Below are positions 14,816 through 60,200 of a stretch of 64,000 bases of DNA, piece after piece. Position numbers and translations under genes: made by a program. Origin of the DNA: a virus; UHGV virus genome UHGV-0042229; one strand, written 5' to 3'. Below the pieces are notes generated by a model that saw only the letters and a program-made list of their open reading frames with translations, did not search any database and was not told the origin of the DNA. Each line of letters starts with the position of its first letter. The first letter of the stretch is position 1.

Positions 14816-17800
14816 ATGAACAAGCTATCTATGGGGGTGTTTCGCTGTTCAAGTGTCAGCGAAATATTGAAATACATTAGGGCAATAACATCTCACCGAG
14901 CGCCGATTAAATACGGCGTGGAAAAGGTGGAAGGCAAAAGCTATGACCGACTGCGCCGTGAGGCGAATCAGAAGGCGATAGATTTGCTTAATTCGCTGGT
15001 GGACGGCGCGACACTGACAGATGAACAGCGCCAGATCCTGGCTGGGTACACCGGTGAAGGCGGCATTGGCGGGTCCGTCTCCGAATATTACACACCAAAG
15101 CCGATCGCTGAAGGTGTCTGGGAGATCATGAAGCTCTACGGCGCGGACGTAGGTAACACTCTGGAACCATCGGCGGGAACCGGCGTTTTTAATGAGACAA
15201 AACCGGTTGGTACGGTGATGACCGCGACTGAGATCAGCAGTGTTTCCGGTCGTATAAACCAGCTGTTGCACCCGGAAGACAGCGTACAGATTTCTCCGTT
15301 CGAACAACTGGCTGTAAGCACGCCTAACGATTCATTCGACCATGTTGTGGGTAACGTTCCGTTCGGTGGTCGTGATAACACACGCAACATCGATAAGCCT
15401 TACGCAGAAGAAACGGACATGGGTTCTTACTTCATGCTCCGCATGCTGGACAAGATAAAGCCAGGCGGATTCATGTGCGTGATTGTGCCGCCGTCCATTG
15501 TTTCAGGTTCAAACATGAAGCGGTTACGCCTGCGCCTATCACGGAAAGCTGAATTTCTTGGTGCCCACCGCTTGCCTACCGGTACTTTTGACGCAAACGG
15601 GACCAGTACAGTTGTTGATGTGGTGCTGATGCGCAAACATCCGGCAGAGATGGCTGAGAAAATCCCCCTGGTGGATGAAAGCACTCTCGAATCGGCAAAT
15701 GTGCTTTGGCCAACGTTTATTTCTGGCAAGTGGTTTGAAAAGGACGGCCGCCGGTTTGTTCATGGCACCCAGGAAAAGGGCTTCCAGGGGCGTATTGAGG
15801 TTCGTGCCGACGGTCAGATTGATAACCAGGCTCTTAAAGCGAAGCTGATTCATCGTTTCGAAAGCCGTATCGACTGGTCTTTGCTCGATATGGCTGAACC
15901 GTCACCGACCGCAGACGTTGTTGGTGAAGGGGAAATGCGCCTGATTAATGGCGTATGGCAAAAATATGCTGGTGGTCGCTGGATTGAAGCTGATGCCGGG
16001 AAGGAACTTAAGATCGATGCTGCCAGTTATGGCGCGGATAGCTGGGAGGCTCTTCAGCGTAACCTGACTACAACAGAAGGCCGTCTCGGCATGACATTTA
16101 CCCAGATGGCAAATGTCCGCGATAAGTACACCACATCAATCAGCGACGATATGGTGCAGCTGGTGGACTGGATTAACAGCCAGCCTGAAAAATACCGTGA
16201 ACGCTTGTATCGCGGGGCGATGATTGGCCGGATGTTAATTGAATATCAGGACATGAAGGCCGCCGGGCATAGTGCTGAACAAATCGAACAGCAGCGCCTT
16301 TCTCTGGTATCCCGTTTGCAGGCAGAGATTGACCGTTTTGGTAACCCCGGTCGCGGTCCGATAGCGAAATTGTCGGGGAGCGGTGCGCGCGCCTGGTTTG
16401 CTTTCCGTGGTGCAATTAAGCTGGATGGCACTATTTCTGACGAGCTGACAGGGAAGCTGGTTACGCATGATTCCAGCGCAAGTTATGACTCCACCAGCTA
16501 TCAGGACACCCTGCGTTATCTCTATAGCGATCTCACCCGCGATCCAATCCAGCTCGATGATTTCCGCCTTGCGTTTACCGGCGAACTGCCAGCCAGTGAT
16601 GAAGAGTTGCTTAATTTATTGGCCAGCACCCCTGGTATTGCGGTTTCACCGTATGGCGGGATTGTTCCGTTCGCCCGCGCCACCAGCGGCGACATTAACG
16701 AGATAGTGGCTCCAAAACAGGAATTCCTCGCCACACTCCCCGACGGTCCAGTAAAGAACAACGTCCTTAATCAGCTGGCAGCTATCGAAGAGAAGCGCAT
16801 CAAGACGCCAGCAGAGAATATCCGGTTTAAGCTCAATAGCCGTTGGTTCGACCGTTCCGTCATTCTGGAATTTTTGCAGGAAAACGGCTATCCGGATCTG
16901 CGCTATGTGCAGTCAGTGCAGCTGGAAGGCGACGAAATGGTTTCTGACACCTATCACGGTGGTGATGGTCTGTTCGTCGGGCACCGATACGGTGTCGTCC
17001 AGCGCAAGGATAAAGAAACAGGTGAGATTCGCTACGAGTGGGACCGTAAATCAGGTGAAAACGCGACCGGGTTCCCGGCACAGCTGGAAAAGTATCTCAA
17101 TGGTGCGCGTATCGGTGGCAAAGATAGCGCGACGGCGAACGGCTACCGCGAGCAGATGGCACTGCTTGAGGACCAGTTCAATAAGTGGATCAAGACGCAC
17201 GATCGCTACGATGAGCTGGTTGCCAAATACAACGATGTGTTCAATAGCAATATCCCGTATGAACACTCTGGCGATCCGCTTGGGTTGAAGGGATTAAGCG
17301 GTAAGCGCCAGCCATTTGATTACCAGAATAGCGAGGTGCGCCGACTGTCCGAAGATGGGCGCGGCATCCTGGGCTTCGGCACCGGGCTGGGTAAAACCAC
17401 GACCGCGCTGGCGCTTGAGGCGTTCAACTATGAGAACGGTCGCTCCACCCGTACTGCGTATGTAGTGCCTAAATCAGTGCTGGAAAACTGGTATTACGAA
17501 GCAAAAGAATTCCTGAGTGAAGAGGCATTCAGTAACTACCTGTTCGTCGGTCTTGATGTGCTGATGGATGGCGATCAGATTCGCCAGGTGCAGGTGCTCG
17601 ATGAGAACGGTAAACCTGTTCTTGGTACTGATGGCACTCCAGTTATGCGCGATGCTCTTAAGCTGGCAGATGAAGCCACTATCACGGCGCGGATGAACGC
17701 GATCCCGCACTCAAATTACCGTGCAGTCGTGTTTACCAAAGAACAATACGCCCGCATTCCGCTACGTGATGACACCGTAGATGAGCATGCACAGGATATG

Positions 17801-20800
17801 CTTTATGACTTCGTTGCCGCCGGACGCGTAGCCAGCGCAATGGACTCCGACTCCCACCGCAAAGAGGCCGCGCGTCGCCGGGTATTGTCGGAGTATTCAG
17901 ATACCGGCACCGAAAAAGCAGAGAAGTATCCGTACTTTGAGGATATGGGCTTCGATAGTGTGATCGCTGACGAAGGTCACAACTACCGCAATAGCTATAA
18001 AAATGGTCGCGAAGCGTCACAACTGGCCTATCTGCCCACCAGCGCGGTGGCGCAATCGGCGCGAGATATGGCAATTAAAAACGCGTACCTGATGAAAAAG
18101 AATGGTGGGCGCGGGCCGGTTCTCCTGACTGCAACGCCAGTCGTTAACACCCCGATCGATGCATACAACATGCTTTCTCATGTTCTGCCGAAGGAATACT
18201 GGCAGAACATGGGGATCTACGGTCCTGATGACTTCGTTAAATTCTTCGGCAAGACCAGGCTGGAAACGGTACAGAAAATTAGCGGTGAAGTTGAAGAAAA
18301 AATGGCGCTGGTGGGCTTTGAAAACCTTGATGCGCTGCGCGGTATATTCCATCGCTGGGTAACGCTTAAAACGGCGGAAGACGTTAAGGATACCGTGGAG
18401 ATCCCGGAGCTGGACGAACACCAGCAGGATGCACCACTTACTGAAGAACAACTGGCGGCGTATGAAGAATTGCGTCAGCAGGCGGAAGCGGCGGCCAAAG
18501 CCAACAATGGCGTAACGACCTCGGTCAATGAAGACGGCGTGATTGAGCACGAGAAAGCCCGTCCGATCTTCTCAATAATCAGGGATATGGACCGCGTATG
18601 TACTGACATGGACCTGTACTATCGCCGGATCACCTATCGTTTCCTGCCGGAGTACGCCGATGCGGTGCAGCAGCTGGCGGACAGTTTGCCTAAACAAGCC
18701 ACCAGCGAAGACGACGACAGTGATGATTCAATCACGCAGCAATCGCAATACTCCCTGATAGATAAGGGCGAGTTTATTCAGTTGCAGGTTCCGGAAGCGT
18801 TCGAGCAGGAAGTGAATAAGCGCCTGGCCAGGTTTGGCATTGACGAACAGACCGTAACTCACCCCGTTACGCCCAAATACGCGAAGCTGATTGCCACGCT
18901 GAAGGAGTTTTTCCCGGAAGGGAAGCAAATCATCTTCACCGACGAAAAAACGCAGCACCAGAAGCTCAAGCGCATTATCTGCAATGTTCTTAACCTTGAA
19001 CCTTCAAAGGTAGGGATCCTGAATGCTCAGACGGTTGCCGAGGCAGGTAAAACCGGTAAGAAACTGAAAGCGGTTAAACCGCCGAAAGAGTTACCGGATG
19101 AACCAACAGATGCACAGATAGCGAAATACAACGAGCAAATGGCTCTGTATGACGCCTATATCGCGCAGCAAAATGAAATGTCGTTGGGCGGTCTGGAAAA
19201 GATTGCAGCCGACTTCCAGGAGGGCCGGACTCCGATCATCATCTGCAACAAAAAGGCAGAGGTGGGTATCAACCTGCATCGAGGAACGACTGACATCCAT
19301 CATCTGACGTTGCCATGGACTCCAGCCAGTATTGCGCAACGAAACGGTCGCGGTGCCCGAGTTGGCTCCAACCGTGCAAGCGTTCGCGTTCACTACTACT
19401 GCGGCAAGGGTTCTTTCGATGAATACCGACTGAAGACGCTGAAGCGTAAAGCAGGCTGGATCTCCGATATCCTCCGTTCAGATAAGTCAGAAATGGAGAA
19501 CGCCGACGCCAACGATATGATCGAAATGCAGATGTATACCGCTAAGGATGATGGCGAACGTCTGGCAATGATGCAGGTTCAAATGGATAAGGCGAAAGCT
19601 GCGAAACGCGCTCGCCAGAAAGAACAGGCTACTATCGACCTTCAGAACTACATCAAGGCGCAGCACGCAGCTGGTGAGGATGTGGAGGTACTTACCGCTG
19701 AATTGGAGCGAAGCAAAGCGGAACTTGAAAAGACCACCGCCGACGTCGCCAAATTCAAACAGGCGGTAATGGCCAAAGCAGCTGATAACGCAGACTGGAA
19801 GGCCCGCTGGGGGAGCGTCCATCACACAGACCGTATGTTGTTAGCACAGTATCGCGCGTCGTTGAAAAACGCCATTCAGCGCAAGGCTAATATCTCTCAA
19901 GCCATCTCCCGCTATGAGAAATTATTGAACCGTACTCAGAAGGCCGCGACGGATATCAAACGCCTGCGCCCGCTGGTGGAGGATGCAATAAATAAAGGCA
20001 TTCTGGATGTTGATCCTGACCTGGTTAACCATGCGAGTGAGTTCCTTGTTATCGGCGATCGCTCATGGCGTGTAGGCCAATACTACGATTGTGCCGGTGA
20101 TATCGTTCGCATTAAGTCGCTGGACTTCGACAGCCAGCGCGCAGACGTGGAGATCATCTTTACCTTCAAAGGCACCAAATCGGGTAACTGGGATGTGAAG
20201 ACGCTGGATAAACAGGTGGATGTAACTCCCGATGAAGATGCTGTTATGCAGAAAATCAGTGGTGGCGTCTCCATCGCCGGGATTAACGACATCATTTCCT
20301 GTGACGATTTCTACCGTTTCCAGCAGCGCGGCATGATCAAAATAACTGACTCGTACGGCGTTCAGACTACAGAGTCAGGCTATAGCATTGATTTTGTTGG
20401 TACCTATACGGACCCACTGAAGCATGCGGTTTACCCGGATCGCCGTGACGGCGCGCTGAAGTCGTCAATTGCAAAATGGGTGCTTGGTATGATGTCGGAA
20501 GGGAATAACCGCCAGATCCGTTCGGCAGAAACATTCCTGGTTGAATTGTTTGGCTCCAATTATGGCGATGTAATCGCGTCATACGGAGATACGCTATCCC
20601 CTGAAGCAATTCAGGAGAAAATAGCGGATGCGATCGCCAGAATGCCGGAAAAAACAAGCCAGGGGGCTACTCGTAACGGGGATTCTGAACTTGAAGTCAC
20701 CAATGCCATTTTCGGTACCAATGAGTTCCGGGCGTCAGATTATGAGATCACCACAGCACAGTTTGGCACCATTGGCATTTACAGCAATAAAGCCGAGATC

Positions 20801-21583
20801 AAGCAGGCAATGGACGCAGCAAGCGCGCGCATCGCAGCAGAACGGGAAGCCAATCTGAATCATGCAGTCGCCGCGCTGACTCAATCGTGGGTAACAGCAA
20901 TCAGGGAGGCCGCCACCACAGGGAAAATCACACCTGCAATAGCGGATGTCGTAAACGACGGCTCTAAATTTATGGATGCCTATCAAATGGATGCGGTGAA
21001 GTTGCCATCAGCCTATGGTCAACTCAGCTATCGCATGACCTACAACCTGGTATCAATGTTTTCCGACCTTGCCATCCTTGGGCTGGTGGATCTTAACGAG
21101 GTTACGCCGGAATTGCTCAGCATGCGCAAGAATCATGTGGAGATATTGCAGAGAATTAACACGGTTCTTGCCGGGCGCACCGATGAAGAGAAACAGGCCG
21201 ACGCTGATCGGATAAACCTAGCCCTTGGCAACATCACGGAGGAAGAGATTGCCGCCAGAAACGAGAAACAAGAAGAGTTATCATCAATACAGGGTGATGC
21301 CACCAGCATAGCTCAGTCTCTTGGTCTGAATTATCGCGTATCCACCGCCGACCTGAAGATGATGTACGCACCAAAATTCGCCGCTGGCGAGGTATTTGGG
21401 CTTCAGGAAGCCTCAGGCATGAAAGGCGTTCTTTTCCGTGCGAAAGACGCAATCAAGGCGAAATTCGGCGCTCGCTGGCTGCCAGCGAAGGCGAAGAACA
21501 GCGATTTCCCGGGTAACTGGTGGATTATCGAGACAAAACACAACGTGGCGGACGTTCTGGCCGTCATCCAACAATACGCATAA
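14816..21583 (+). CDS. darB: DarB antirestriction protein (N6-adenine methyltransferase domain fused to SF2 helicase)
   Basis: 2255 aa; MTase-like motifs EPSAGTGVF and GNVPFGG; helicase motifs GFGTGLGKTT and VIADEGHNY; length equals P1 DarB. Confidence 0.8.
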   Translation: MNKLSMGVFRCSSVSEILKYIRAITSHRAPIKYGVEKVEGKSYDRLRREANQKAIDLLNSLVDGATLTDEQRQILAGYTGEGGIGGSVSEYYTPKPIAEGVWEIMKLYGADVGNTLEPSAGTGVFNETKPVGTVMTATEISSVSGRINQLLHPEDSVQISPFEQLAVSTPNDSFDHVVGNVPFGGRDNTRNIDKPYAEETDMGSYFMLRMLDKIKPGGFMCVIVPPSIVSGSNMKRLRLRLSRKAEFLGAHRLPTGTFDANGTSTVVDVVLMRKHPAEMAEKIPLVDESTLESANVLWPTFISGKWFEKDGRRFVHGTQEKGFQGRIEVRADGQIDNQALKAKLIHRFESRIDWSLLDMAEPSPTADVVGEGEMRLINGVWQKYAGGRWIEADAGKELKIDAASYGADSWEALQRNLTTTEGRLGMTFTQMANVRDKYTTSISDDMVQLVDWINSQPEKYRERLYRGAMIGRMLIEYQDMKAAGHSAEQIEQQRLSLVSRLQAEIDRFGNPGRGPIAKLSGSGARAWFAFRGAIKLDGTISDELTGKLVTHDSSASYDSTSYQDTLRYLYSDLTRDPIQLDDFRLAFTGELPASDEELLNLLASTPGIAVSPYGGIVPFARATSGDINEIVAPKQEFLATLPDGPVKNNVLNQLAAIEEKRIKTPAENIRFKLNSRWFDRSVILEFLQENGYPDLRYVQSVQLEGDEMVSDTYHGGDGLFVGHRYGVVQRKDKETGEIRYEWDRKSGENATGFPAQLEKYLNGARIGGKDSATANGYREQMALLEDQFNKWIKTHDRYDELVAKYNDVFNSNIPYEHSGDPLGLKGLSGKRQPFDYQNSEVRRLSEDGRGILGFGTGLGKTTTALALEAFNYENGRSTRTAYVVPKSVLENWYYEAKEFLSEEAFSNYLFVGLDVLMDGDQIRQVQVLDENGKPVLGTDGTPVMRDALKLADEATITARMNAIPHSNYRAVVFTKEQYARIPLRDDTVDEHAQDMLYDFVAAGRVASAMDSDSHRKEAARRRVLSEYSDTGTEKAEKYPYFEDMGFDSVIADEGHNYRNSYKNGREASQLAYLPTSAVAQSARDMAIKNAYLMKKNGGRGPVLLTATPVVNTPIDAYNMLSHVLPKEYWQNMGIYGPDDFVKFFGKTRLETVQKISGEVEEKMALVGFENLDALRGIFHRWVTLKTAEDVKDTVEIPELDEHQQDAPLTEEQLAAYEELRQQAEAAAKANNGVTTSVNEDGVIEHEKARPIFSIIRDMDRVCTDMDLYYRRITYRFLPEYADAVQQLADSLPKQATSEDDDSDDSITQQSQYSLIDKGEFIQLQVPEAFEQEVNKRLARFGIDEQTVTHPVTPKYAKLIATLKEFFPEGKQIIFTDEKTQHQKLKRIICNVLNLEPSKVGILNAQTVAEAGKTGKKLKAVKPPKELPDEPTDAQIAKYNEQMALYDAYIAQQNEMSLGGLEKIAADFQEGRTPIIICNKKAEVGINLHRGTTDIHHLTLPWTPASIAQRNGRGARVGSNRASVRVHYYCGKGSFDEYRLKTLKRKAGWISDILRSDKSEMENADANDMIEMQMYTAKDDGERLAMMQVQMDKAKAAKRARQKEQATIDLQNYIKAQHAAGEDVEVLTAELERSKAELEKTTADVAKFKQAVMAKAADNADWKARWGSVHHTDRMLLAQYRASLKNAIQRKANISQAISRYEKLLNRTQKAATDIKRLRPLVEDAINKGILDVDPDLVNHASEFLVIGDRSWRVGQYYDCAGDIVRIKSLDFDSQRADVEIIFTFKGTKSGNWDVKTLDKQVDVTPDEDAVMQKISGGVSIAGINDIISCDDFYRFQQRGMIKITDSYGVQTTESGYSIDFVGTYTDPLKHAVYPDRRDGALKSSIAKWVLGMMSEGNNRQIRSAETFLVELFGSNYGDVIASYGDTLSPEAIQEKIADAIARMPEKTSQGATRNGDSELEVTNAIFGTNEFRASDYEITTAQFGTIGIYSNKAEIKQAMDAASARIAAEREANLNHAVAALTQSWVTAIREAATTGKITPAIADVVNDGSKFMDAYQMDAVKLPSAYGQLSYRMTYNLVSMFSDLAILGLVDLNEVTPELLSMRKNHVEILQRINTVLAGRTDEEKQADADRINLALGNITEEEIAARNEKQEELSSIQGDATSIAQSLGLNYRVSTADLKMMYAPKFAAGEVFGLQEASGMKGVLFRAKDAIKAKFGARWLPAKAKNSDFPGNWWIIETKHNVADVLAVIQQYA

Positions 21584-21616
21584 CAGGAGCGCCCGGTTCG
21601 CCGGGCGTCGCATAAT

Positions 21617-22057
21617 ATGGCCACACTATCTGATACAATAAAACCGAATAAAACATATCTTGAGGCGGTACTGCGTACGGCATTGTTAGGAAAGACAGAA
21701 GACGAATACGTTGATTTCTTCCTGTCAGGGCTACGCGGGCGATTACTGAAAAATCCCCGCCTGTACCGCAGCTATGGCCCATACTGGCCGGAAATTAAAA
21801 AATTATTACTGGAGCGCGGTTATGGTAATTTCGGTCGTCTCGTTGACCGTGACGTTCGCAAAATTTACCGTTATGACCGCCCGGCGCTAACACTCATAGC
21901 CGCGACGCTCTACAGCCAGGAGCGTTTTGATAATGGTCAGATATACTCAGCCTGGCATTTACTGCCAGTGCCTGAAGAAGTTGACGACCAGGACTATGAG
22001 TTTGAGTCTTACGATTTGGAAGTTGAAGCCTTGGCACAGGCTGGAGAGAAAACTTGA
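21617..22057 (+). CDS. hypothetical protein (Ulx-like position)
   Basis: 146-aa ORF immediately downstream of darB. Confidence 0.4.
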   Translation: MATLSDTIKPNKTYLEAVLRTALLGKTEDEYVDFFLSGLRGRLLKNPRLYRSYGPYWPEIKKLLLERGYGNFGRLVDRDVRKIYRYDRPALTLIAATLYSQERFDNGQIYSAWHLLPVPEEVDDQDYEFESYDLEVEALAQAGEKT

Positions 22058-22302
22058 AAAAGCGATACTACACAGTAAAGCATGGGACGCTACGAGCATT
22101 ACAAGAGTTTGCTGATAAGCATAACGTTGAGGTGCGCAGGGAAGGGGGAAGTAAAGCTCTGCGCATGTACCGTCCGGACGGGAAATGGCGTACGGTCGTC
22201 GATTTCAAAACTAACAGTGTTCCCCAGGGCGTCCGCGACCGGGCATTCGAAGAATGGGAGCAGATCATCATAGATAATGCATTGCTTCTCAATGCTGATT
22301 GA
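22054..22302 (+). CDS. hypothetical small protein (Lxc-like position)
   Basis: 82-aa ORF overlapping the upstream stop by 4 nt. Confidence 0.4.
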   Translation: MKKRYYTVKHGTLRALQEFADKHNVEVRREGGSKALRMYRPDGKWRTVVDFKTNSVPQGVRDRAFEEWEQIIIDNALLLNAD

Positions 22303-22310
22303 GTTTTGTT

Positions 22311-22335
22311 GGCCCGGTTTGCACCGGGCGTTTCA
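22311..22335 (+). terminator. possible terminator hairpin
   Basis: GCCCGGT-TTGC-ACCGGGC followed by GTTTCAC, between convergent genes. Confidence 0.3.
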
Positions 22336-22384
22336 CAAACAATCAACTGGTTTGTAGTTCCTGCGGCGAGATGAATTATTAATA

Positions 22385-22993
22385 TTATCGTGGTGCCGAT
22401 GATGCGATAGCCTGTATGATGTTATCAATATCGTTATCGTTCAGCATGAATATAGGTACACCATTAGAGTTTGCATTTTTTTCAGTGCTCATCAAACAAA
22501 GCCCCTCATACATGCCGCGAGTTTTTTTGAAATTGGCGACTGATGGAGTGGTGTAATTTCCTTTAAAGTGCATTCCGGCTGATTCATAAAAAGGAACCAA
22601 ATCAGACTGGCAAATCAAAGCGACCTCATTTGGAAATGCAAGTATTTCTGCCAGTATATTACTTCCAAGTCCATTACCACGATATTGCTCATATACATAT
22701 ATTTTATGACAGTACAACGGAAAATTTCCCGATGGATGTCCGAAGATTAAGGCGTATCCGAACAAGTTTTCTTCATTAGTAAAGCCCATAATGCGCAAAT
22801 GACCGGCTCGGTAACACTCTTCAAAAACGTTAATTATGTAGCTTCTCGCTGCTTTCAGCTCCTCTTCTGTCGGGAACATCATCAACCCCATAAGCGATGG
22901 AGTATAGACCAGATCCTGAAGAATCCCATTAGCTTCATTTTCGAAAATTAGCGGTAAGTGCGGTACAATTTCATTTGCCGAGGTATTAGACAT
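22385..22993 (-). CDS. GNAT-family N-acetyltransferase
   Basis: Acetyl-CoA-binding motif YEQYRGNGLGSNIL; gene and flanks are conspicuously AT-rich. Confidence 0.7.
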   Translation of the reverse strand: MSNTSANEIVPHLPLIFENEANGILQDLVYTPSLMGLMMFPTEEELKAARSYIINVFEECYRAGHLRIMGFTNEENLFGYALIFGHPSGNFPLYCHKIYVYEQYRGNGLGSNILAEILAFPNEVALICQSDLVPFYESAGMHFKGNYTTPSVANFKKTRGMYEGLCLMSTEKNANSNGVPIFMLNDNDIDNIIQAIASSAPR

Positions 22994-23192
22994 AGTATGG
23001 TGAGTCCTTTGTTTTCAAAGGACTCATGTTATCAGTGATAATCGTTTGTTGTAATAGTGTTGATAAAATAATTTTCTATTATGTAAGCAAGCTCATTTTT
23101 ATGACGGGTAATGCAAAAAAAAATAGAATCAAAAAACTAAAAAATAATAATTCATGGGGTTTTACACCATCAAAAGTCCCCACTATAAATTA

Positions 23193-23834
23193 TTAGAAAT
23201 AATTATGCTTGCCTGTTAATACCCCTTTCGGCACTTTTTTTTGTTCCAGTGTCTGGGTACCCAGAATTATGTTAATAAGTGGACTTAGTAACGATGGTTC
23301 CTGGCGGGCTTCAACTTCTCCAGCCATTGCCCTGATGTAGTCGGCGCTGGCAACGTTGTTGTATTCCGTCGCAAAGCAACATAGTAACGTCAGAACATGC
23401 TCTGTCGTTATTTCGCTCCAGTTGATGTTGAAAAATTCATCGCCTTTTTTATCGTGTTCGGAATCGAAGATGCTTTGGTGGAGGATGTATTTGCCGGATT
23501 CCTTGCGCGGTAACTTGATCGCTTTCTGGCGTTCCAGCTCCTTGTAAATCTGCATTGCTTCAATCAGTACCGGCCTGCCGTTCATGAAGGGATCGCGCAA
23601 CCTTACACGCTGGCCAACTCGACCAGTAATAAAGCTGTTTTCCTCTTCCACCAGCACGATAAAACCCTTTTCCTCTTTTTCTCGCAATTCGCGCAGCAGC
23701 TGGAGTTCCATATCGCGGCGGCGTTCAGGGTAGCTGGTCCGCTCAGCCATTATCAGCTCGTTATTGATCCATGCAGCAGTCATTGACGCCGGTTTGCCGA
23801 CGCTCATCGAAACAACGCATATTTTCTTATCCAT
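23193..23834 (-). CDS. hypothetical protein (P1 mat position)
   Basis: ORF downstream of ref; start set at MDKKICVV... after an AGGGGG RBS (ORF track extends to 23981). Confidence 0.45.
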   Translation of the reverse strand: MDKKICVVSMSVGKPASMTAAWINNELIMAERTSYPERRRDMELQLLRELREKEEKGFIVLVEEENSFITGRVGQRVRLRDPFMNGRPVLIEAMQIYKELERQKAIKLPRKESGKYILHQSIFDSEHDKKGDEFFNINWSEITTEHVLTLLCCFATEYNNVASADYIRAMAGEVEARQEPSLLSPLINIILGTQTLEQKKVPKGVLTGKHNYF

Positions 23835-24023
23835 AGCGCCCCCTACAAAAAAGAAAAGCCACCAGCGGCGGCTTAGCAATACAACTGAAGGTAGCGCCCG
23901 GTACTCAGACTGTGCCGTCCATGGAATATTTGAAAAGGGATCCATCCGTACCGGGCATGTGATGATTCTGACTGAAGTCACTTGTCAGTTGTCAATCATT
24001 TATCATTAAAAATAATATATTTA

Positions 24024-24584
24024 TTAGTGCATGATGTTTGCCATCTCATAGGCGTCAGCCAGTAACTCCATCTCTGACTTGTTCAGCAGGGTGAATTCTT
24101 TCTTGCCTCCAACCACACCATCGGCATGAACAGGGACCAGCCAGGGGTATTTTGCTCTTACTTCAGCCGGTGCTGCATGCTGGTGGTGCCATCTACAAAG
24201 TGGCAATTGCTTTTTATGACAACCCGGCGCGGTACGACCGGCGATATGGTGCAGAGACACCTCATTAGATATTACTCCATGCATATAGCAGGCAATGCAG
24301 GGGAGAGTGCCAAGAGCATTGGCGATGCGCCGTTCCTCCGCCGTTGGTGTTCTCCCCTTCAAGCCACGAGATTTTATTTTTACCGCGCTTTTCCGCGTTT
24401 TGCTGGCTGGTGGGCGCTCTTTCTGTTTAGCGATACGGCGGTCGATAGTATCTCGCATTTTCTGATATTGAGATTCTCGCCAGACCGGATCAGCCAACTT
24501 CTCCCGTTGCCGAGCGATCGCTCGTTCTCTGGCTGCCTTCTGCCACTTGCGGCACTGTTCAATTTTTTGTTCGATTGTTTTCAT
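24024..24584 (-). CDS. ref: Ref recombination-enhancement HNH endonuclease
   Basis: 186 aa, MKTIEQKIEQCRKWQKAARER..., Cys/His-rich HNH-like core; matches P1 Ref as recalled. Confidence 0.85.
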   Translation of the reverse strand: MKTIEQKIEQCRKWQKAARERAIARQREKLADPVWRESQYQKMRDTIDRRIAKQKERPPASKTRKSAVKIKSRGLKGRTPTAEERRIANALGTLPCIACYMHGVISNEVSLHHIAGRTAPGCHKKQLPLCRWHHQHAAPAEVRAKYPWLVPVHADGVVGGKKEFTLLNKSEMELLADAYEMANIMH

Positions 24585-24590
24585 ATGGTC

Positions 24591-24617
24591 AAAAAAAAGG
24601 CGGCCTAATGGCCGCCT
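24591..24617 (-). terminator. intrinsic terminator or attenuator hairpin just upstream of the ref ATG
   Basis: Minus strand reads GGCGGCC-ATTA-GGCCGCC followed by T8. Confidence 0.45.
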
Positions 24618-24830
24618 ATGATGTCAAGGAGTTAAGTAATGGCACGTCTTCGTAGTTGACAAAAACTGCGGCTCAATTATAACAATCATTTAGAGCAATG
24701 GTAGCTATTTTATTTATCGCGAATCACATTTTTTCTCTTCAGTACCTGTGTGCTATACTCCTTCTTGATTGATTGGATGCGGAATACAAACCCGCTCTTT
24801 TGTGCAGCCTGGCTCCTTGCCAGGCTTTTT

Positions 24831-25142
24831 TTATTTCATCATGGAAGCTGTTAATGCTTTGGACCTTGCTGAACTGATTGAGAGGGCTTTGTCAACGTGC
24901 CCCAAAAATTCGCCAAACTCAGACATCACTTTGGCAAAACCGCGCCGTGCTTCTTCCTCGGTGGCATTCATCACGAAATGTTCAGCACTACGCATACTTT
25001 TGACAGGGAACGCAACGGATATTGAGTCAATATCAGGCATTCTATCGCTCAACTTTACAGTGACAATGACGGCTGGCGACTGAATATTAGTGCTTACAGA
25101 CAGCACTACATATTTTCCGTCGATGTTGAAATCCTTTCTCAT
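24831..25142 (-). CDS. hypothetical protein between cre and ref (cra position)
   Basis: 103-aa ORF downstream of cre on the same strand. Confidence 0.4.
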   Translation of the reverse strand: MRKDFNIDGKYVVLSVSTNIQSPAVIVTVKLSDRMPDIDSISVAFPVKSMRSAEHFVMNATEEEARRGFAKVMSEFGEFLGHVDKALSISSARSKALTASMMK

Positions 25143-25158
25143 ATATCACCATAAATAT

Positions 25159-25175
25159 CAAATAATTAGAGCAAT
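25159..25175 (-). promoter_or_regulatory. C1 operator-like site (3 mismatches)
   Basis: CAAATAATTAGAGCAAT between cre and the 103-aa ORF. Confidence 0.4.
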
Positions 25176-25192
25176 TTCTTATGCATTGACGG

Positions 25193-26224
25193 CTAATCAC
25201 CATCTTCCAGCAGGCGCACCATTGCCCCCGTTTCACTATCCAGATTACGGATATAGTTCATGACAATATTTACGTTGGTCCAGCCACCAGCTTGCATGAT
25301 CTCCGGTATTGAAACTCCGGCGCGGGCCATATCTCGCGCGGCTCCGACACGGGCACTGTGTCCAGACCAGGCCAGGTACCTCTGACCAGAGTCATCCTTA
25401 GCCCCGTAAATCAATCGGTGAGTTGCTTCAAAAATCCCTTCCAGGGCGCGAGTTGATAGCTGGCTGGTGGATGATGGCGAGGCAACACCATTTTTTCTGA
25501 CCCGGCAAAACAAGTAGTTATTCGGATCATCAGCCACACCAGAGACAGAAATCCATCGCTCGACCAGTTTAGTTACCCCCAGGCTAAGTGCCTTCTCTAC
25601 ACCTGCGGTGCTAACCAGCGTTTTCGTTCTGCCAATATGGATTAACATTCTCCCACCGTCAGTACGTGAGATATCTTTAACCCTGATCCTGGCAATTTCG
25701 GCTATACGTAACAGGGTGTTATAAGCAATCCCCAGAAATGCCAGATTACGTATATCCTGGCAGCGATCGCTATTTTCCATGAGTGAACGAACCTGGTCGA
25801 AATCAGTGCGTTCGAACGCTAGTGCCTGTTTTGCACGTTCACCGGCATCAACGTTTTCTTTTCGGATCCGCCGCATGACCAGTGAAACAGCATTGCTGTC
25901 ACTTGGTCGTGGCAGCCCGGACCGACGATGAAGCATGTTTAGCTGGCCCAAATGTTGCTGGATAGTTTTTACTGCCAGACCGCGCGCCTGAAGATATAGA
26001 AGATAATCGCGAACATCTTCAGGTTCTGCGGGAAACCATTTCCGGTTATTCAATTTGCACCATGCCGCCCATGACCGGCAAACGGACAGAAGCATTTTCC
26101 AGGTATGCTCAGAAAACGCCTGGCGATCCCTGAACATATCCATCAGGTTCTTGCGAACCTCATCACTCGTTGCATCGACCGGCAATGCAGGCAAATTTTG
26201 GTGTACGGTCAGTAAATTGGACAT
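25193..26224 (-). CDS. cre: Cre tyrosine site-specific recombinase
   Basis: 343-aa translation MSNLLTVHQNLPALPVDATSDEVRKNLMDMF...MVRLLEDGD is the P1 Cre sequence as recalled, barring a few conservative differences. Confidence 0.97.
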   Translation of the reverse strand: MSNLLTVHQNLPALPVDATSDEVRKNLMDMFRDRQAFSEHTWKMLLSVCRSWAAWCKLNNRKWFPAEPEDVRDYLLYLQARGLAVKTIQQHLGQLNMLHRRSGLPRPSDSNAVSLVMRRIRKENVDAGERAKQALAFERTDFDQVRSLMENSDRCQDIRNLAFLGIAYNTLLRIAEIARIRVKDISRTDGGRMLIHIGRTKTLVSTAGVEKALSLGVTKLVERWISVSGVADDPNNYLFCRVRKNGVASPSSTSQLSTRALEGIFEATHRLIYGAKDDSGQRYLAWSGHSARVGAARDMARAGVSIPEIMQAGGWTNVNIVMNYIRNLDSETGAMVRLLEDGD

Positions 26225-34309: not shown

Positions 34310-34510
34310 TTATCTGCTGCCCGGCATTCTCTGTTTAAGCACAACCATTTCCTGACGGCATAACACAGCAATAGCGGTCCTGGCACCAATTTGCTTACCA
34401 ACCAGGTATTGCTTTACCTCGCTGCGACTCACGCCATCAAGAAGCATCTTTAACGCTTCACGGGACAATTTGTTGTATTTGCGTGCCATTAATCTACTCC
34501 GCAGAACCAT
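34310..34510 (-). CDS. small protein downstream of doc (PdcA-like position)
   Basis: 66-aa ORF overlapping the doc stop. Confidence 0.3.
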
Positions 34511-34874
34511 ACAATCTACGTAACGTGTCGGCGACAGAAGATACAGATATCTCTCCGGTCGCAGCCCCTACGGTAAGGTCTGCCAGTTCAGGTGAATCAA
34601 ATACCTGCACCCCGTTACGGCGTAGAAATAACAGCGCACTGTTTAGCGCGGTACGCTTATTGGCATCATTGAATATATGCCCTCTCGCTGTAGCCACCAG
34701 GTAGGTGGCGGAGACTTCGAAAAGGTCGGTGATCTCTTCGTAGGCAACTCTGGCCTGAACTCTCCCGATAATGGCCTCTGCCCTACCCGGATCTGACATT
34801 CCCGGCAGGCCGCCGTAGCGGTTTATATTCGCATCATGAAGCGCAATAAGTTCTTCCGGTGATATATGCCTCAT
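34494..34874 (-). CDS. doc: Doc toxin (Fic-family kinase)
   Basis: 126 aa [22 protein letters not shown]... with Fic motif [11 protein letters not shown]. Confidence 0.9.
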
Positions 34875-35095
34875 TATCGGTTAACCAGTTCCTTGTTGGT
34901 GGAGTCCAGGGTGTCAAACAGGGATGCAAATTCAGCATCCAGCGCCGCTTTTTTGTAGGCTTCGAAAGTAGCCTTGCTGACAATTACTGCTGGCTCACGG
35001 CCTCTGCGGGTGATTTCAACCTCTTCCCCGGCTTCAACATTGTTGAGCACTTCAGAAAGGTTGCCGCGCGCGGTACGGAAGTTAATGGATTGCAT
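34874..35095 (-). CDS. phd: Phd antitoxin
   Basis: 73 aa [39 protein letters not shown]...; stop overlaps the doc start. Confidence 0.9.
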
Positions 35096-35271
35096 AAACA
35101 CCTCGTGTACTCGTTATGTGTACACAATTATAAACTTCACAGGCATAAAGCACCAGCACTTTGCGGCTTAACAAACCTCTAGGCAGATCATTCGTAGCCT
35201 AATGTCCGAACTGCTAAAGCATCCAAGTTGCTGTAGAATCACCGCCAATTACATAAGCCTGAAATAAGTGG

Positions 35272-36833
35272 ATGAAAATGACAAGTATTCAACAACGTGC
35301 AGAGCTTCATCGTCAAATCTGGCAAATTGCTAACGATGTCAGGGGTTCGGTCGATGGATGGGATTTTAAGCAATACGTTCTGGGCGCACTTTTCTACCGT
35401 TTTATCAGCGAAAATTTTTCCAGCCATATGGAAGCCGGTGATGACAGTATCTGTTATGCGAAACTGGATGACAGCGTAATTACTGATGACATTAAAGACG
35501 ATGCCATCAAAACTAAAGGCTACTTCATCTACCCCAGTCAGCTTTTCTGCAACGTAGCTGCGAAAGCAAATACCAATGACAGACTGAATGCGGATTTAAA
35601 CAGCATCTTCGTTGCTATCGAAAGTTCTGCTTACGGTTACCCTTCAGAAGCTGACATCAAAGGTTTGTTTGCTGATTTCGATACCACCAGTAACCGCCTG
35701 GGTAACACCGTTAAGGATAAAAATGCCCGCCTGGCCGCGGTTCTGAAAGGGGTTGAAGGGTTAAAGCTTGGCGACTTTAACGAACATCAGATTGACCTGT
35801 TCGGCGATGCCTATGAGTTCCTGATTTCTAACTATGCGGCAAATGCCGGTAAGTCAGGCGGTGAGTTCTTTACACCGCAGCACGTCTCCAAGCTGATTGC
35901 ACAACTGGCTATGCACGGGCAGACCAGCGTTAACAAAATCTACGACCCGGCAGCGGGTTCCGGCTCACTGTTGTTGCAGGCGAAAAAACAGTTTGATAAC
36001 CATATCATCGAAGAAGGTTTTTCGGTCAGGAAATCAACCATACGACCTATAACCTGGCGCGTATGAACATGTTTTTGCACAACATCAACTACGACAAGTT
36101 TGATATCAAGCTGGGCAATACGCTGACTGAACCGCACTTCAGAGATGAAAAACCGTTTGATGCCATCGTTTCTAACCCGCCGTATTCGGTGAAATGGATT
36201 GGCAGCGATGACCCGACGCTGATTAACGATGAGCGTTTTGCCCCGGCTGGCGTTCTGGCCCCCAAATCCAAAGCTGACTTTGCGTTTGTATTACATGCGC
36301 TGAACTATCTTTCGGCCAAAGGTCGTGCTGCGATTGTCTGCTTCCCGGGTATTTTTTACCGTGGCGGCGCAGAGCAGAAAATCCGTCAGTATCTGGTCGA
36401 TAATAACTATGTCGAAACCGTAATTTCACTGGCTCCGAACCTGTTCTTTGGCACCACCATTGCCGTAAACATTCTGGTTCTGTCCAAACATAAAACGGAT
36501 ACCAACGTTCAGTTTATTGATGCCAGCGAACTGTTCAAAAAAGAGACCAACAACAATATCCTGACCGATGCCCATATCGAACAGATTATGCAGGTATTTG
36601 CCAGCAAGGAAGATGTTGCTCATCTGGCGAAATCTGTTGCGTTTGAGACTGTTGTCGCGAATGACTATAACCTGTCGGTAAGCAGCTATGTGGAAGCCAA
36701 AGATACCCGCGAAGTTGTAGATATCACTGAACTGAATGCCGAACTGAAAACCACCGTCAGCAAAATCGACCAATTGCGCAAAGATATTGATGCGATTGTG
36801 GCTGAAATTGAAGGCTGCGAGGTGCAGAAATGA
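35272..36833 (+). pseudogene. hsdM: type IC HsdM (EcoR124-family) interrupted by a -1 frameshift
   Basis: Two ORFs (35272..36066 and 36063..36833) together cover an HsdM with FxGxG-like AAGSGSLL and NPPY; reading frame switches at the T5 run 36018..36022. Confidence 0.85.
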
Positions 36834-38104
36834 GCGAGTTGAGTTATCTGGAAAAATTGCTGGATGGGGTTGAGGTTGAGTGGAAATCTTTGGGTGAAAT
36901 TGCCACTAAAATTTACTCAGGGGGAACCCCGGATACAAAAAGAAAAGAGTATTGGGAGAATGGAACTATTCCCTGGATGAGTTCTGGCGAAGTGAACTTA
37001 AAAAATATTGAAAGGACAGAGAAATATATTACTGAGGCTGGATTAAATAACTCTAGTGCCAAATTAGTACCGAGAAACTCTGTAGTCATAGCCTTGGCTG
37101 GTCAGGGAAAAACTCGAGGTAAAGTAGCAAGAATCCGTATCGCATTAGCTACTAATCAATCACTTGCAGCACTTACATTTGATGAAAAGAAATTCAGTTC
37201 CGATTACGTATTCCATTTTTTAGAGACTCAGTATGAGAGTTTGCGTCAAATATCATCTGGAAACAGCGGACGCGGCGGACTAAATCTGCAAATGATTTCA
37301 GCATACAAAATCCCAATTCCCTGCCCGGATAATCCGGAAAAATCCCTTGCCATCCAGTCTGAAATCGTTCGGATTCTGGACAAATTCAGCGAGCTTACAG
37401 CAGAGCTTACAGCAGAGCTTAACATGCGTAAAAAACAGTACAACTACTATCGCGACCAGTTGTTGCGTTTTAAAGAGGGTGAGGTTGAGTGGAAGACTTT
37501 GGGGGAAATTGGAGATTTTACATATGGATATGCAGCCAAAGCCATGGATTCAGGAGATGCCCGTTTCGTGAGAATTACTGACATAAATAAAGACGGGAAG
37601 CTATCGAAAGAAAACCCAATGTACGTTGAATTAAATGAGGAAAATGAGAAATATACCTTAGACAAAAATGATTTACTCATGGCAAGAACTGGGGCAACCT
37701 TTGGTAAAACAATGATTTTTGAAGAAGATTATCCAGCAGTATACGCTGGTTTTTTAATAAAGTTGAACCTAAATAAAACGATTATTAATGCCAAATATTA
37801 CTGGCACTTTGCACAAAGTGATTTTTTTTGGGAACAGGCTAATAAATTAGTATCTGGTGGTGGGCAACCACAGTTTAATGCTAATGCACTGAAACAAGTC
37901 AGAGTACCTATTCCATACCCATCTCACCCTCAAAAATCTTTAGACGAACAGGGGCGTATTGTGGATATTCTGGATAAGTTTGATGCAATCGCAGCTTCCA
38001 TCACCGAAGGTCTCCCGCGTGAAATCGAGTTGCGCCAGAAACAATACGAGTACTATCGTGATTTACTGTTCAGTTTCCCGAAACCTGAAACTGTCAGTAA
38101 TTAA
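36830..38104 (+). CDS. hsdS: type IC specificity subunit HsdS
   Basis: Conserved N-terminus [24 protein letters not shown], central repeat TAELTAEL, C-terminal conserved region [27 protein letters not shown], two variable TRDs. Confidence 0.85.
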
Positions 38105-38225
38105 TTGACCATTGCTACCGACCGGACCACCTTAACATCCGGTCTGTATATAGACTATTTTTTACGTGCCGGAAGTCACCCTTAACTCCCTTCCGGCCCT
38201 TGCCAGACGGCACAAAGGATGCGCT

Positions 38226-41200
38226 ATGACTCATCAGACACACACTATTGCTGAATCCAATAACTTTATCGTCCTTGATAAGTACATCAAAGCTGAGCCA
38301 ACAGGCGACAGCTACCAGAGCGAATCGGACCTGGAACGTGAACTGATTCAGGACCTGCGGAATCAGGGCTATGAATTTATATCCGTAAAATCTCAGTCGG
38401 CTATGCTGTCCAATGTTCGGGAACAGCTTCAGAGCCTCAATGGTGTGGTGTTTAATGACAGCGAGTGGCGGCGTTTCACGGAGCAGTATCTGGACAACCC
38501 GAGCGATGGCATTCTGGATAAAACCCGTAAAATCCATATCGACTATATCTGCGACTTTATTTTTGACGACGGGCGACTTGAGAACATCTATTTGATAGAT
38601 AAAAAGAATCTCATGCGCAATAAGGTGCAGATTATCCAGCAGTTTGAACAGACGGGTTCTCATGCTAACCGTTATGACGTCACGATCCTGGTTAATGGCT
38701 TACCACTGGTACAAATCGAACTGAAAAAGCGCGGCGTGGCGATTCGTGAGGCTTTCAACCAGATACATCGTTACAGTAAAGAGAGTTTTAACAGCGAAAA
38801 TTCCCTGTTTAAGTATCTGCAACTGTTTGTCATTTCTAACGGCACCGATACCCGTTACTTTGCCAACACCACAAAGCGCGATAAAAACAGTTTTGATTTC
38901 ACCATGAACTGGGCGAAATCAGACAACACGCTGATTAAAGACCTCAAAGACTTTACCGCTACCTTTTTCCAGAAACATACTCTGCTGAATGTTCTGGTGA
39001 ACTACAGCGTGTTTGACAGTAGTCAGACGTTACTGGTGATGCGACCGTACCAGATTGCCGCCACCGAGCGCATTCTGTGGAAAATTAAGAGCTCCTTTAC
39101 AGCGAAGAACTGGTCAAAACCGGAAAGCGGTGGGTATATCTGGCACACTACCGGTTCTGGTAAAACCCTTACCAGCTTTAAAGCCGCGCGTCTGGCAACA
39201 GAGCTGGACTTTATTGATAAAGTCTTCTTTGTGGTCGACAGAAAAGACCTCGATTACCAGACCATGAAGGAATATCAGCGTTTTTCGCCAGACAGCGTCA
39301 ACGGCTCGGAAAATACCGCAGGCCTTAAACGAAATCTGGATAAGGACGATAACAAAATTATCGTCACTACTATTCAGAAACTCAATAACCTGATGAAAGC
39401 AGAAAGCGACCTGCCTGTATATAATCAGCAAGTGGTGTTCATATTTGATGAATGCCACCGCAGCCAGTTTGGAGAAGCGCAGAAAAACCTGAAGAAGAAA
39501 TTCAAACGCTATTATCAGTTTGGTTTTACCGGCACCCCTATTTTCCCGGAAAACGCCTTAGGCTCAGAAACAACCGCCAGCGTATTTGGTCGTGAATTGC
39601 ATTCGTATGTAATTACCGATGCGATTCGTGACGAAAAAGTGCTCAAATTCAAGGTGGACTACAACGATGTGCGGCCACAGTTTAAGTCTTTAGAGACAGA
39701 AACTGACGAGAAAAAACTAAGTGCGGCTGAAAATCAGCAGGCGTTTCTTCATCCCATGCGTATTCAGGAAATCACGCAATATATTCTGAATAATTTCCGC
39801 CAGAAAACTCACCGTACCTTCCCTGGCTCAAAAGGTTTTAATGCTATGTTGGCAGTGAGCAGCGTGGATGCCGCGAAAGCCTATTATGCGACGTTTAAAC
39901 GGTTACAAGAAGAAGCCGCTAATAAATCGGCTACCTATAAACCGCTGCGTATTGCGACAATCTTCTCCTTTGCCGCCAATGAAGAACAAAATGCCATTGG
40001 TGAAATTTCCGATGAAACTTTTGATACCAGCGCAATGGACAGCAGTGCTAAAGAGTTTCTGGACGCTGCAATTCGTGAATATAACAGCCATTTTAAAACT
40101 AACTTTAGCACCGACAGTAACGGTTTTCAGAACTACTATCGTGATTTAGCCCAGCGGGTTAAAAATCAGGATATCGATCTGCTAATTGTCGTGGGGATGT
40201 TTTTAACCGGCTTCGATGCTCCAACATTGAACACGCTATTCGTCGATAAAAACTTGCGTTTTCACGGCCTGATGCAGGCATTTTCCCGCACCAACCGTAT
40301 TTATGATGCAACTAAAACCTTCGGTAATATCGTCACTTTCCGGGATCTGGAACGCTCAACTATTGATGCCATAACGCTGTTTGGTGACAAAAACACCAAA
40401 AATGTGGTGTTAGAAAAGAGTTATACAGAGTATATGGAAGGCTTTACTGATGCTACTACTGGTGAAGCTAAACGCGGCTTCATGACAGTAGTTTCAGAAC
40501 TGGAACAACGGTTCCCTGACCCTACCAGTATTGAAAGTGAAAAAGAGAAGAAAGACTTCGTTAAACTGTTTGGCGAATACCTGCGTGCCGAGAACATCCT
40601 GCAAAACTATGATGAATTTGCCACGCTAAAAGCCCTGCAACAAATCGATCTTAGCGATCCTGTTGCGGTAGAAAAATTCAAAGCAGAACATTATGTGGAT
40701 GATGAAAAGTTCGCTGAATTGCAAACAATTCGTCTCCCTGCTGATCGCAAGATTCAGGATTATCGTTCTGCCTATAACGATATTCGCGACTGGCAGCGCC
40801 GTGAGAAAGAAGCTGAGAAAAAAGAGAAATCAACCACTGACTGGGATGACGTAGTTTTTGAGGTCGATTTGCTGAAGTCTCAGGAAATAAACCTGGATTA
40901 TATCCTTGGACTGATTTTCGAACACAACAGACAAAATAAAGGCAAGGGCGAAATGATCGAAGAGGTCAAACGCTTAATTCGTTCAAGCCTAGGGAACCGT
41001 GCTAAAGAGGGCCTGGTGGTCGATTTTATTCAGCAAACGAACCTGGATGATTTACCGGACAAAGCCAGCATCATTGACGCATTCTTTACGTTTGCTCAAC
41101 GCGAACAGCAACGTGAAGCAGAAGCATTGATAAAAGAAGAAAATCTCAATGAAGATGCAGCAAAACGCTATATTCGCACGTCTTTAAAACGCGAATATGC

Positions 41201-41342
41201 CACCGAAAATGGCACAGAATTAAACGAAACATTACCAAAACTTAGTCCGTTGAATCCGCAATATAAAACGAAAAAACAGGCAGTTTTCCAGAAAATCGTC
41301 TCGTTTATTGAGAAGTTTAAAGGGGTAGGCGGAAAAATATAG
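38226..41342 (+). CDS. hsdR: type IC restriction endonuclease subunit HsdR
   Basis: 1038 aa from [20 protein letters not shown]...; helicase motifs TGSGKT and DECH; ORF track start at 38166 lies upstream in frame. Confidence 0.9.
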
Positions 41343-41429
41343 CCCAATTCGTGTTTTTCTTGCGGGTTCTTTATTAAACCCGCAAGAGATCGTGGGGTTC
41401 CAAATGGCTAATATACTCCCCTTACCCAT

Positions 41430-41516
41430 GCGCGACGATGCCGCCAAAAGTGATAGAGAACAGCCAGAAATAGATCGTGGCCATAATGATTTTGAATGCC
41501 GTGTTCATATTTTCAG
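41430..41516 (-). CDS. possible 28-aa hydrophobic peptide
   Basis: MNTAFKIIMATIYFWLFSITFGGIVAHG after GGAGCTG, downstream of a C1 operator; speculative. Confidence 0.2.
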
Positions 41517-41590
41517 CTCCAGTGATTGATTGGATACATGCCGCGCCTTGCGGCATGTTTTTATTTTCACTTTCTCTGTTTTAAAAATCA

Positions 41591-41607
41591 AGATTTATTA
41601 GAGCAAT
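41591..41607 (-). promoter_or_regulatory. C1 operator (1 mismatch)
   Basis: AGATTTATTAGAGCAAT. Confidence 0.6.
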
Positions 41608-42113: not shown

Positions 42114-42186
42114 ATGCCCTCCTCATTGGACGAAAAAAAATGCTGGTGGGCGCACTCCACCAGCATTAAAAGTGACACTGTAACTA

Positions 42187-57234: not shown

Positions 57235-60200
57235 ATACCCAAAACGTCATGAGCTACACCTCGAGTGTCCCCCTTACAAGACACAGAACGTCTGGCAAAA
57301 AGAGGTTCCACTCTGAAGCCACTGTCATGATAAAGCTCTCTGATGTTTGGCGCGCCACTGTTAGTAATGAGAACCTTTGCACCTCGACGATGAGCATCCG
57401 TCAACAGAGACACCAGGCGTTTTTGCTCTTCAAACTTAAAGTCATGACCGGAATAGTTCGTGAATCCCTCTGTATTTGGAAGCGGTTCATACGGCGGATC
57501 GCAAAAGATGACATCTCCTTCTCCGGCAGCTTCAATCACCGCTGCAAAATCACCGCATACAAACTCAGACCGCCCTTCCGCACCGAGGAAGGCTTCCATC
57601 TCCTGTAATGGGAAATACGGAGTTTTATACTTCCCATAACCGACATTGAACTCACCGGCCTGGTTGTAGCGCGTCAATCCGTTAAAACAATGTCGGTTCA
57701 GGAACAAAAACGCCGCTGCGCGATGTAAATCATCATAGACTTGTTTGTTAAACGCATTCCGTACTGCCAAGTATCCCTCCTGGGTGTTGTAGTCCAGGAA
57801 AAAACGATGTGCCAGAGTGATAAGTGAATGCTCCTCGCGTTGCAGAGTCTTGTAAAAGTTAATCAGGTCAGCATTCACATCATTTAGCAGATTTTCCTGG
57901 TATCCGGCATTCATGAAGACAGCTCCGCCACCGACGAAAGGTTCAATCAGGCGCTTCCCTTCTGGCAAATAGCGAAAGATTTGTTCCAGAACACCAAATT
58001 TTCCACCGGCCCATTTGAATATGGACCGTTCGAATTCTGCCGCTGGTTTAACTTTTCGCTCTTTTGTTTCACTTCCTTCTTTCTGCCGACATACGGCCTT
58101 AGTAATCCGATCGCCAATCCAGCGCATTACTGGTATTGCCATACTATTGCCGATCGCTTTGTAACGCGGTCCGTCAGCTGCAAGCATTGCGGCCTCTTCT
58201 TCGCTTAAATCTGGATAGTGATTGTGCAGATATGCCAGTTCATCTGAATTAACTTTTTTACGCTTTTCCGTAGGGATCAACGTATGCCAATCAGGAAAAC
58301 CTTGCAGCCTTTCACATTCGACAGGGGTAAGACGGCGCATTCTACCGTCGCCGAGCAATACAATTGGTGCTTCATGGTTACATGTCAAAGTTGGTGCCGA
58401 ATTATCGGTTTTTATCTCAGCCCCTCCTTGCCCATGTGCCATGGCAATTATGTTTGTATCATCGCAAGTTCTGATAGCGATGTTTGAAGTATATCTGGTA
58501 GTTTCCTTCCCCTCGCCTCTGCTCGGCGCAATATTCCGGCGCACGCCTTCGAACTCAAAAAGTACCGTTGCGGGATCGAGGTCTGTTCGAGCACTTGCGA
58601 CAACAAACACGCGTCGGCGTCGTTGTGCCACTCCGAAGTATTGGGCATCAAGGATTCTCCAGGCCACTTTTCGCTGCGGTCCATAAATACAACCACACTG
58701 CGGCCACTTTGGAGCATGGCAACCGGTTTTGACATCCCACCGCCAGAATGCGTTACTTTTTCCTGATTCAGGTCGATCACCTGGTTCGAATGGCGCATCT
58801 TCTCCAGCCAATCCGGCAAGGAAACATCCGAAGGCGTTATCTGCCGATGACAAGACTCCTGGGACATTTTCCCAGACGATAACGGCTGGTTTGAGAAATG
58901 ACTCAGCCCGTTTGTCGTCAATTGCATTTGCAAGCTCCACATACTTTAAAGTTAGCGCGCCACGCTCATCATCAAGCCCACCACGTAATCCAGCGATACT
59001 GAATGCCTGACAGTTATGGACCACCGCACCATTGAGGATATAGGAATGATCACCTTCGACTTCTATGTTGTATACAGTATCTAGGCCTACCGATTTAAAC
59101 TCTTTGACTGTTCGTAAAAGCATTCCATGAGCCAATCTTGATTTACGTGACAATTTCTGCGGGCAGATTGTTACCTGATAATAATTCCGTTGATTTACCA
59201 CGCGATCCTCAATCACTTTTTTGGGCTTAACTTCAATAAAGCTGACCGAAGAAACATAACCACAAGTCTGTGACAACTCCGCAACGCCCCAAGCAAGCGC
59301 AGGACTAACACTATTAATTCTAAATCCCGCTTTACCACTTGGTGTCCCATCAGTATCAAGATAGCCTTGTAAAAACACATGACGCAATGGATGCGACATA
59401 ACCCATGCAGGGATACGCTTAGCATGGCTTAACTCGCCAAAATGTTCATTAAGCCAATTGGCATAACACGTATCATTCAAGGTTACTTTGATGCTCCCTC
59501 GGATTTCGCTTGCCACGGAAAATATGTTTTCTGGTATGCGGCAATGAAACTTTCTCAATTTCTGGCAATTTATGCCAAAAACAACCGCCTTCTTAGATTT
59601 ACCTCTCCATCTCCTAATATATCCATCGCCAACATAAGCGCCCGCAAGATACATAGCCTGTTCTTCAGACAAGAACCGAGAACAAATATCTGGAGATGCA
59701 ATATTGAAATTAGTTAGAGCACACCATTGATATCCCGGCATATCACATGCTGCTCGCCATTCCGGTTCAGACAACAACTCTCTCTTAAAATATGTGCCAT
59801 TTTTCCGGGTGTTTTGGGCTTTCCACCGAACCGCCAGGAAGGGATGGTCATTGGTTGTTCTTATACCTAAAGGCTGCCCAACGGCATTAAGTAACCCCGT
59901 ATTAGCTATTTTTGAACCAACTCTTTTTACTTGTTGTAACCGCCCGAGATGACTGACTACGTAATCGCCAGGGCAAACATCTTCTATTGGTTTATAACCA
60001 TTTTTACAAAGAACCATATGCCCCGCGGTAAAACATGGTGTCCCTCCCACCAGCACATCAGGGGCTTCAATTTCTCCAGCCTGGACTTTTTGGGCGAGTT
60101 TTGTCATGTCGCCAAGGTTGGCGACATGGGGCCAGTGGTACGCAAGAACGGCAGATGGAAAAGGCTCGATTTCAGCAAACCACGCCGGACGCATACCCAA

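Follow-up and report, generated by a model that had tools for sequence, protein, structure and literature searches.

The 64,000-nucleotide stretch of DNA analysed here (the window) carries pacA/pacB, lpa, pdcA/B, phd-doc, c1 and a cre-type integrase, the gene complement of a P1-like phage-plasmid (Punavirus). A 20-kb query from it matches P1, P7, RCS47 and SJ46 at 96-99% identity along 69-95% of its length, and a 25-kb query matches IncY-type P1-like plasmids at about 99% identity along 96%. The view of the first-pass annotation that the element is a mobile phage-plasmid is thus borne out by DNA identity. A restriction-modification cassette, hsdMSR, lies next to the phd-doc addiction module of the P1-like backbone (34494..35101, minus strand), which is located directly upstream of hsdM on the opposite strand; an hsd cassette beside phd-doc is also found in many other P1-like plasmids. 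The slot that holds the cassette (35101..41607) is bounded by phd and by a 168-aa HAD/PNKP-like gene. In the hsd-less P1-like plasmid NZ_CP026725.1 the same slot (14897..25773 of the fetched record, L013) is filled by humD, a theta-subunit homologue and about 10 kb of small genes, and the region appears to hold variable cargo in P1-like plasmids. Elsewhere on the backbone, a Dmt-like ORF of the Dam methyltransferase family (57225..60266, minus strand) encodes 1013 aa, compared with 754 and 672 aa in two relatives, and its blastp matches leave gaps that suggest inserted or replaced internal segments.

The cassette has the type IC gene set in the order hsdM-hsdS and then hsdR, with the expected Pfam domains, and only hsdM is broken. 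Intact hsdS (36830..38104, plus strand; 424 aa, Methylase_S domain) overlaps the end of hsdM by 4 bp and is separated by a gap of 121 bp from intact hsdR (38226..41342, plus strand; 1038 aa, HSDR_N, ResIII and EcoR124_C domains). HsdR aligns to EcoR124I HsdR (2W00_A) over residues 1-1038 with 2297 bits, and the central conserved region of HsdS, with two TAEL copies (TAELTAEL), aligns to EcoR124II HsdS; the 4-residue TAEL repeat was reportedly described by Price et al. in 1989, and PMC3320862 contains no mention of it. Together with the conserved regions of HsdS and the near-identity of HsdM described below, this upholds the assignment to the EcoR124 family made from the sequence at first pass. 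Five E. coli records (e.g., NZ_AP027602.1, 428 aa) carry a near-identical hsdS that is 12 bp longer than that of the window (6001..7287 in the fetched record L011; the central region of the window gene lies around 37370..37400). The additional 12 bp have the size of one more TAEL copy, and the difference would be a spacer-length specificity switch of the EcoR124I/EcoR124II type among close relatives.

hsdM Is Split at a Run of Five Ts

The reading frame of hsdM is divided into two overlapping ORFs. The 5' fragment (35272..36066, plus strand) encodes 250 native residues up to ...NHIIEEGF, after which come 14 out-of-frame residues and, at 36064..36066, a TGA. Gene callers and RefSeq start this fragment at the second ATG (35278), which yields a 262-aa product beginning MTSIQQ; the start at 35272 yields 264 aa beginning MKMT, and an exact look-up matched the 262-aa form and returned no match for the longer one. 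The fragment comprises HsdM_N (PF12161, residues 12-159) and the start of N6_Mtase including motif I (DPAAGSG), its PF02384 match covering profile positions 2-71 of 311. The 3' fragment (36063..36833, plus strand) encodes 256 aa, corresponding to native residues 265-520 with motif IV (NPPY), and matches PF02384 at profile positions 95-310. Although its frame is open further upstream, a start codon first occurs in it at 36063, where ATG and the stop codon of the 5' fragment overlap as ATGA. The break is therefore situated within N6_Mtase, after profile position 71 and before position 95.

The sequence at 36010..36066 reads GAAGAAGGTTTTTCGGTCAGGAAATCAACCATACGACCTATAACCTGGCGCGTATGA, starting with GAAGAAGGTTTTTCGGTCAGG and ending with CGTATGA. 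It contains a T run of exactly five, bordered by G and C, at 36018..36022, a site at which relatives have GGT TTT TTC (T6) or GGC TTT TTC; the fetched relatives read GGTTTTTTCGG and plasmid pLR-48_1 reads GGCTTTTTCGG. From this point, the out-of-frame tail and its stop codon (36022..36066) put 14 residues in the place of native residues 251-264. Insertion of one T restores a single HsdM ORF of 520 aa, which aligns end-to-end (residues 1-520) with the EcoR124II M protein (PDB 7BST chain D) at about 99% identity and 1154 bits. Consistently, hsdM spans 1562 bases in the window and 1563 in relatives, and the missing T is the sole indel inside the gene in comparison with three intact relatives. The first-pass annotation had located a break of hsdM in a T homopolymer, with a change of frame after ...NHIIEEGF and with T6 as the restoring state, and translation and alignment corroborate each of these points; of its term '-1 frameshift' the break stands, whereas the event is more exactly called a 1-bp deletion. 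As judged by its sequence, the hsdM locus is a member of the EcoR124 family by descent, but a pseudogenised copy. We consider it very probable that a recent T6-to-T5 deletion inactivated hsdM of this type IC operon on a human-gut P1-like phage-plasmid. The deletion would most simply have arisen by replication slippage in the short homopolymer of GGT TTT TTC.

The T5 Allele among Relatives

How widespread is the T5 allele? We searched plasmid records and complete E. coli genome records with a 71-bp stretch centred on the T run, and counted the T5 state; T7 and other lengths were given no separate count. The T5 allele was found in 0 of 649 matching plasmid records and in 0 of 1,245 matching complete E. 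coli genome records (1,275 places). Correspondingly, all of these records fell below 99% identity, the best match being 98.6%, which equals one gap. Of 5,426 complete E. coli genomes, 1,187 contained matches to the same stretch at an identity of at least 90%, at 654 places on chromosomes and 621 on plasmids, with up to five places in a single genome. The comparison with related P1-like plasmids proposed in the first-pass annotation thus found every relative examined to be in frame. Among 16 other truncated members of two HsdM-fragment clusters, none had the same out-of-frame tail, all being contig-end partials that continue with the normal sequence; 40 of 787 and 40 of 1,639 members of these clusters were read, and the tail may recur elsewhere. 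Neither the T5 nor the T5-T7 pattern had a match in IMG/VR, and the T5-T7 pattern had none in GTDB representative genomes, but the T6 form is likewise absent from both collections, so that these two results are uninformative.

Apart from the window, the T5 allele was found solely on contigs from human-gut metagenomes, all with 100% identity to the window. A pattern scan of metagenome contigs detected T5 in one (UMFS01051056.1, 38 kb) and T6 in two. The exact truncated 262-aa product is found on seven contigs, drawn from ENA, NCBI and Logan and possibly all derived from one sample or run, and the exact HsdS of the window is likewise found on seven contigs, all of the same kind. One of the seven with the truncated product, k127_18803 (ERZ910759/ERR209739, 91 kb; PRJEB1220, human gut), has T5, and both this contig and UMFS01051056.1 match the window at 100% identity along 13-21 kb.

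Might the missing base be a sequencing or assembly error, with T6 in the actual DNA and an intact hsdM? Errors are typical of homopolymers, and a private error would be expected to stand alone, as the T5 allele does among about 1,900 matching records. Such errors do occur in P1-like records: in ON470615.2 (phage vB_EcoM-673R5, L001), which looks like an error-rich record, the annotation splits each of hsdM, hsdR and pacA, and the record differs from the window by about 16 single-base indels over 12.5 kb; its hsdM is split elsewhere in the gene, and it has T6 at the site of the T5 run. However, T5 is present in two separately named assemblies, the MEGAHIT-style k127 contig (ERZ910759) and GCA_900526765.1, and for the truncated product a third source, Logan, is listed. 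Because two separate assemblies agree on T5, an artefact of the assembler is unlikely. If the T5 contigs share one sample, a read-level error or a mixed T5/T6 population would still be compatible with this agreement. The data of PRJEB1220 are short-read Illumina data, in which runs of five bases are not error-prone, and this counts against a sequencing error. Moreover, in contrast to the 673R5 record, no other gene is frameshifted in the 64 kb: of about 60 conserved ORFs that encode at least 120 aa and also occur in two complete relatives, hsdM is the sole real gene to be split, and the further 1-bp indels private to the window all fall in non-coding DNA. Taken together, a read-level error appears unlikely, yet it is the only serious alternative to a genuine lesion.

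The window-private non-coding differences just mentioned comprise a run of A8 instead of A7 at 42133, about 20 bp upstream of the 168-aa gene; a single-base difference in the length of a T run in the vicinity of 24826; a single-base deletion at 56306, beside tRNA-Thr/tRNA-Asn (56399..56552); and a single-base deletion at 63733, just past a stop codon at 63728.

Recoding and Phase Variation

Conceivably, a split gene might still give rise to an active HsdM, either by a -1 ribosomal slip on GGU UUU U or by the assembly of two fragments translated via the ATGA overlap. A slip would allow perfect re-pairing in the P site, with tRNA-Phe on UUU one base back, and would yield ...GFFGQE..., whereas the overlap of stop and start at 36063..36066 might permit translation of the second fragment. 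The features of a programmed -1 frameshift are nevertheless lacking at this site. The out-of-frame arrangement is kept in no homologue, there is no X XXY YYZ heptamer, which leaves a P-site slip on U UUU U as the sole option, and the 88 nt downstream fold no better than shuffled sequences (z = -0.72). A run of five Ts is also too short for efficient transcriptional slippage. Two separate fragments fare no better, since no Shine-Dalgarno sequence is evident before the ATG at 36063 and the resulting enzyme would be devoid of 14 conserved residues. We therefore regard both routes to an active HsdM as extremely unlikely.

The position of the frameshift in a homopolymer within hsdM also raises the possibility that the T tract is a contingency locus, which switches hsdM, and thus the whole restriction-modification system, ON and OFF. 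Switching of this kind, driven by simple sequence repeats (SSRs), is known in other bacteria: hsdM is phase-variable by CGAGA repeats in Haemophilus influenzae and by ACAGC repeats in Mannheimia haemolytica (PMC7383803). As in those genes, a change of repeat length inside hsdM would turn the methyltransferase off by a frameshift here. The tracts of SSR phase-variable hsdM genes, however, consist of at least 9 mononucleotides or at least 3 penta-repeats, vary among strains and are mostly located in the 5' region; at least 9 mononucleotides is also the calling threshold for phase-variable hsd genes, and the shortest example cited is G7 (PMC7383803). The tract in the window has five Ts, and six in relatives, which is below both values, and it is situated in the middle of the gene. 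Close relatives are not polymorphic for T5, which is absent from the 649 plasmid and 1,245 genome records, and the GGC TTT TTC of some relatives implies that the T run is not conserved as a tract. Phase variation thus has very little probability in our judgement. Among the options raised at first pass, which had considered a sequencing error, a genuine lesion and a phase-variable one, we favour a genuine lesion private to this lineage. It is an ordinary loss of function in a restriction-modification family, and on a type of mobile element, that are both well known.

Discussion

When did the deletion arise? Following repair, HsdM is residue-for-residue the same as an intact protein of 518 aa from an isolate assembly of Klebsiella quasipneumoniae (HIH9412023.1), and the HsdR protein of the window is identical to an allele present on 144 contigs. 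The closest relative with the same hsdS (99.5%), pLR-48_1, has an intact HsdM of 518 aa. Relative to the closest plasmid, there are 12 synonymous and 2 non-synonymous changes in the repaired hsdM, and hsdR has 2 of each kind. Given that hsdS and hsdR are intact, that the HsdR allele is shared so widely and that the repaired HsdM exists as an intact protein in Klebsiella, we conclude that the lesion is young. The absence of decay elsewhere in the hsd operon likewise speaks for a recent deletion, and hsdS and hsdR would still be intact because there has been too little time for their decay. At positions 35419..35424 (codons 50-51, MTSIQQ numbering), HsdM of the window has H50 and M51 instead of the Y and I found in EcoR124 and the fetched relatives. 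The same pair is present in the intact Klebsiella quasipneumoniae protein HIH9412023.1, and this sequence match hints that the HsdM allele may have moved between genera.

How might the deletion affect the enzyme? Translation would end 14 codons past the shift, and the cut in HsdM, at residue 250 of 520, would separate motif I (DPAAGSG) from motif IV (NPPY) within the Rossmann-fold catalytic domain. The lost 14 residues form the FGQEIN…LAR segment, including GQE.N and ARMN, which are kept even in homologues that match no better than E=1e-99 (3LKD) and E=1e-55 (7VRU). The methyltransferase is M2S and the nuclease is R2M2S (PMC7383803), and because both assemblies need HsdM, the sequence as it stands should support neither modification nor restriction. 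Given this subunit requirement and the removal of a conserved segment, we predict an r- m- state for the locus as written, in which hsdR and hsdS should be stranded without HsdM.

A type IC HsdM resident in the host could, however, complement the defect in trans. The 654 chromosomal places in complete E. coli genomes that match the hsdM stretch at an identity of at least 90% provide the basis for this scenario; hsdM of the EcoR124 family is very common in E. coli, and cells that harbour more than one type IC system must be frequent. Family assignment of type I systems is, moreover, classically based on whether their subunits are interchangeable. One might thus imagine that a host's own type IC hsdM makes the broken copy tolerated or even favoured, with intact hsdS and hsdR borrowing the resident M subunit, in which case the element would add a new specificity to the host system without paying for its own methylase. 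We judge this last scenario to be highly unlikely, and a simple loss of function is our preferred reading.

The locus illustrates the known point that type I systems can lose M without death of the host, because restriction also needs M, and knockouts of hsdM are thus easy first steps in the decay of restriction-modification cassettes on mobile elements. In annotations, the locus is best described as an hsdM pseudogene within an inactive type IC restriction-modification system, and it should be left out of any tally of active defence systems on this phage-plasmid; beyond annotation, the finding has little importance.

The cassette can be compared with two sets of known systems. Intact hsdMSR cassettes in the same position and orientation beside phd-doc are carried by the P1-like plasmids pLR-48_1 (NZ_AP027544.1), NZ_CP062860.1 and p20170604CC-1 (NZ_AP025210.2), and these are 97-99% identical in DNA to that of the window; unlike the window, all three have HsdM in frame, with 518 aa, and either T6 or GGC followed by T5 at the site. 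EcoR124I and EcoR124II, the type IC systems of plasmid R124, have the same gene order, with hsdM-hsdS, a gap and hsdR, and differ from the system described here by the 1-bp deletion in hsdM. The HsdS proteins have N-terminal, central (TAELTAEL) and C-terminal conserved regions in common, whereas the target-recognition domains are unlike those of EcoR124, and a different DNA specificity is therefore expected. Finally, EcoR124I and EcoR124II are encoded on a conjugative plasmid, whereas the present system resides on a P1-like phage-plasmid beside phd-doc.
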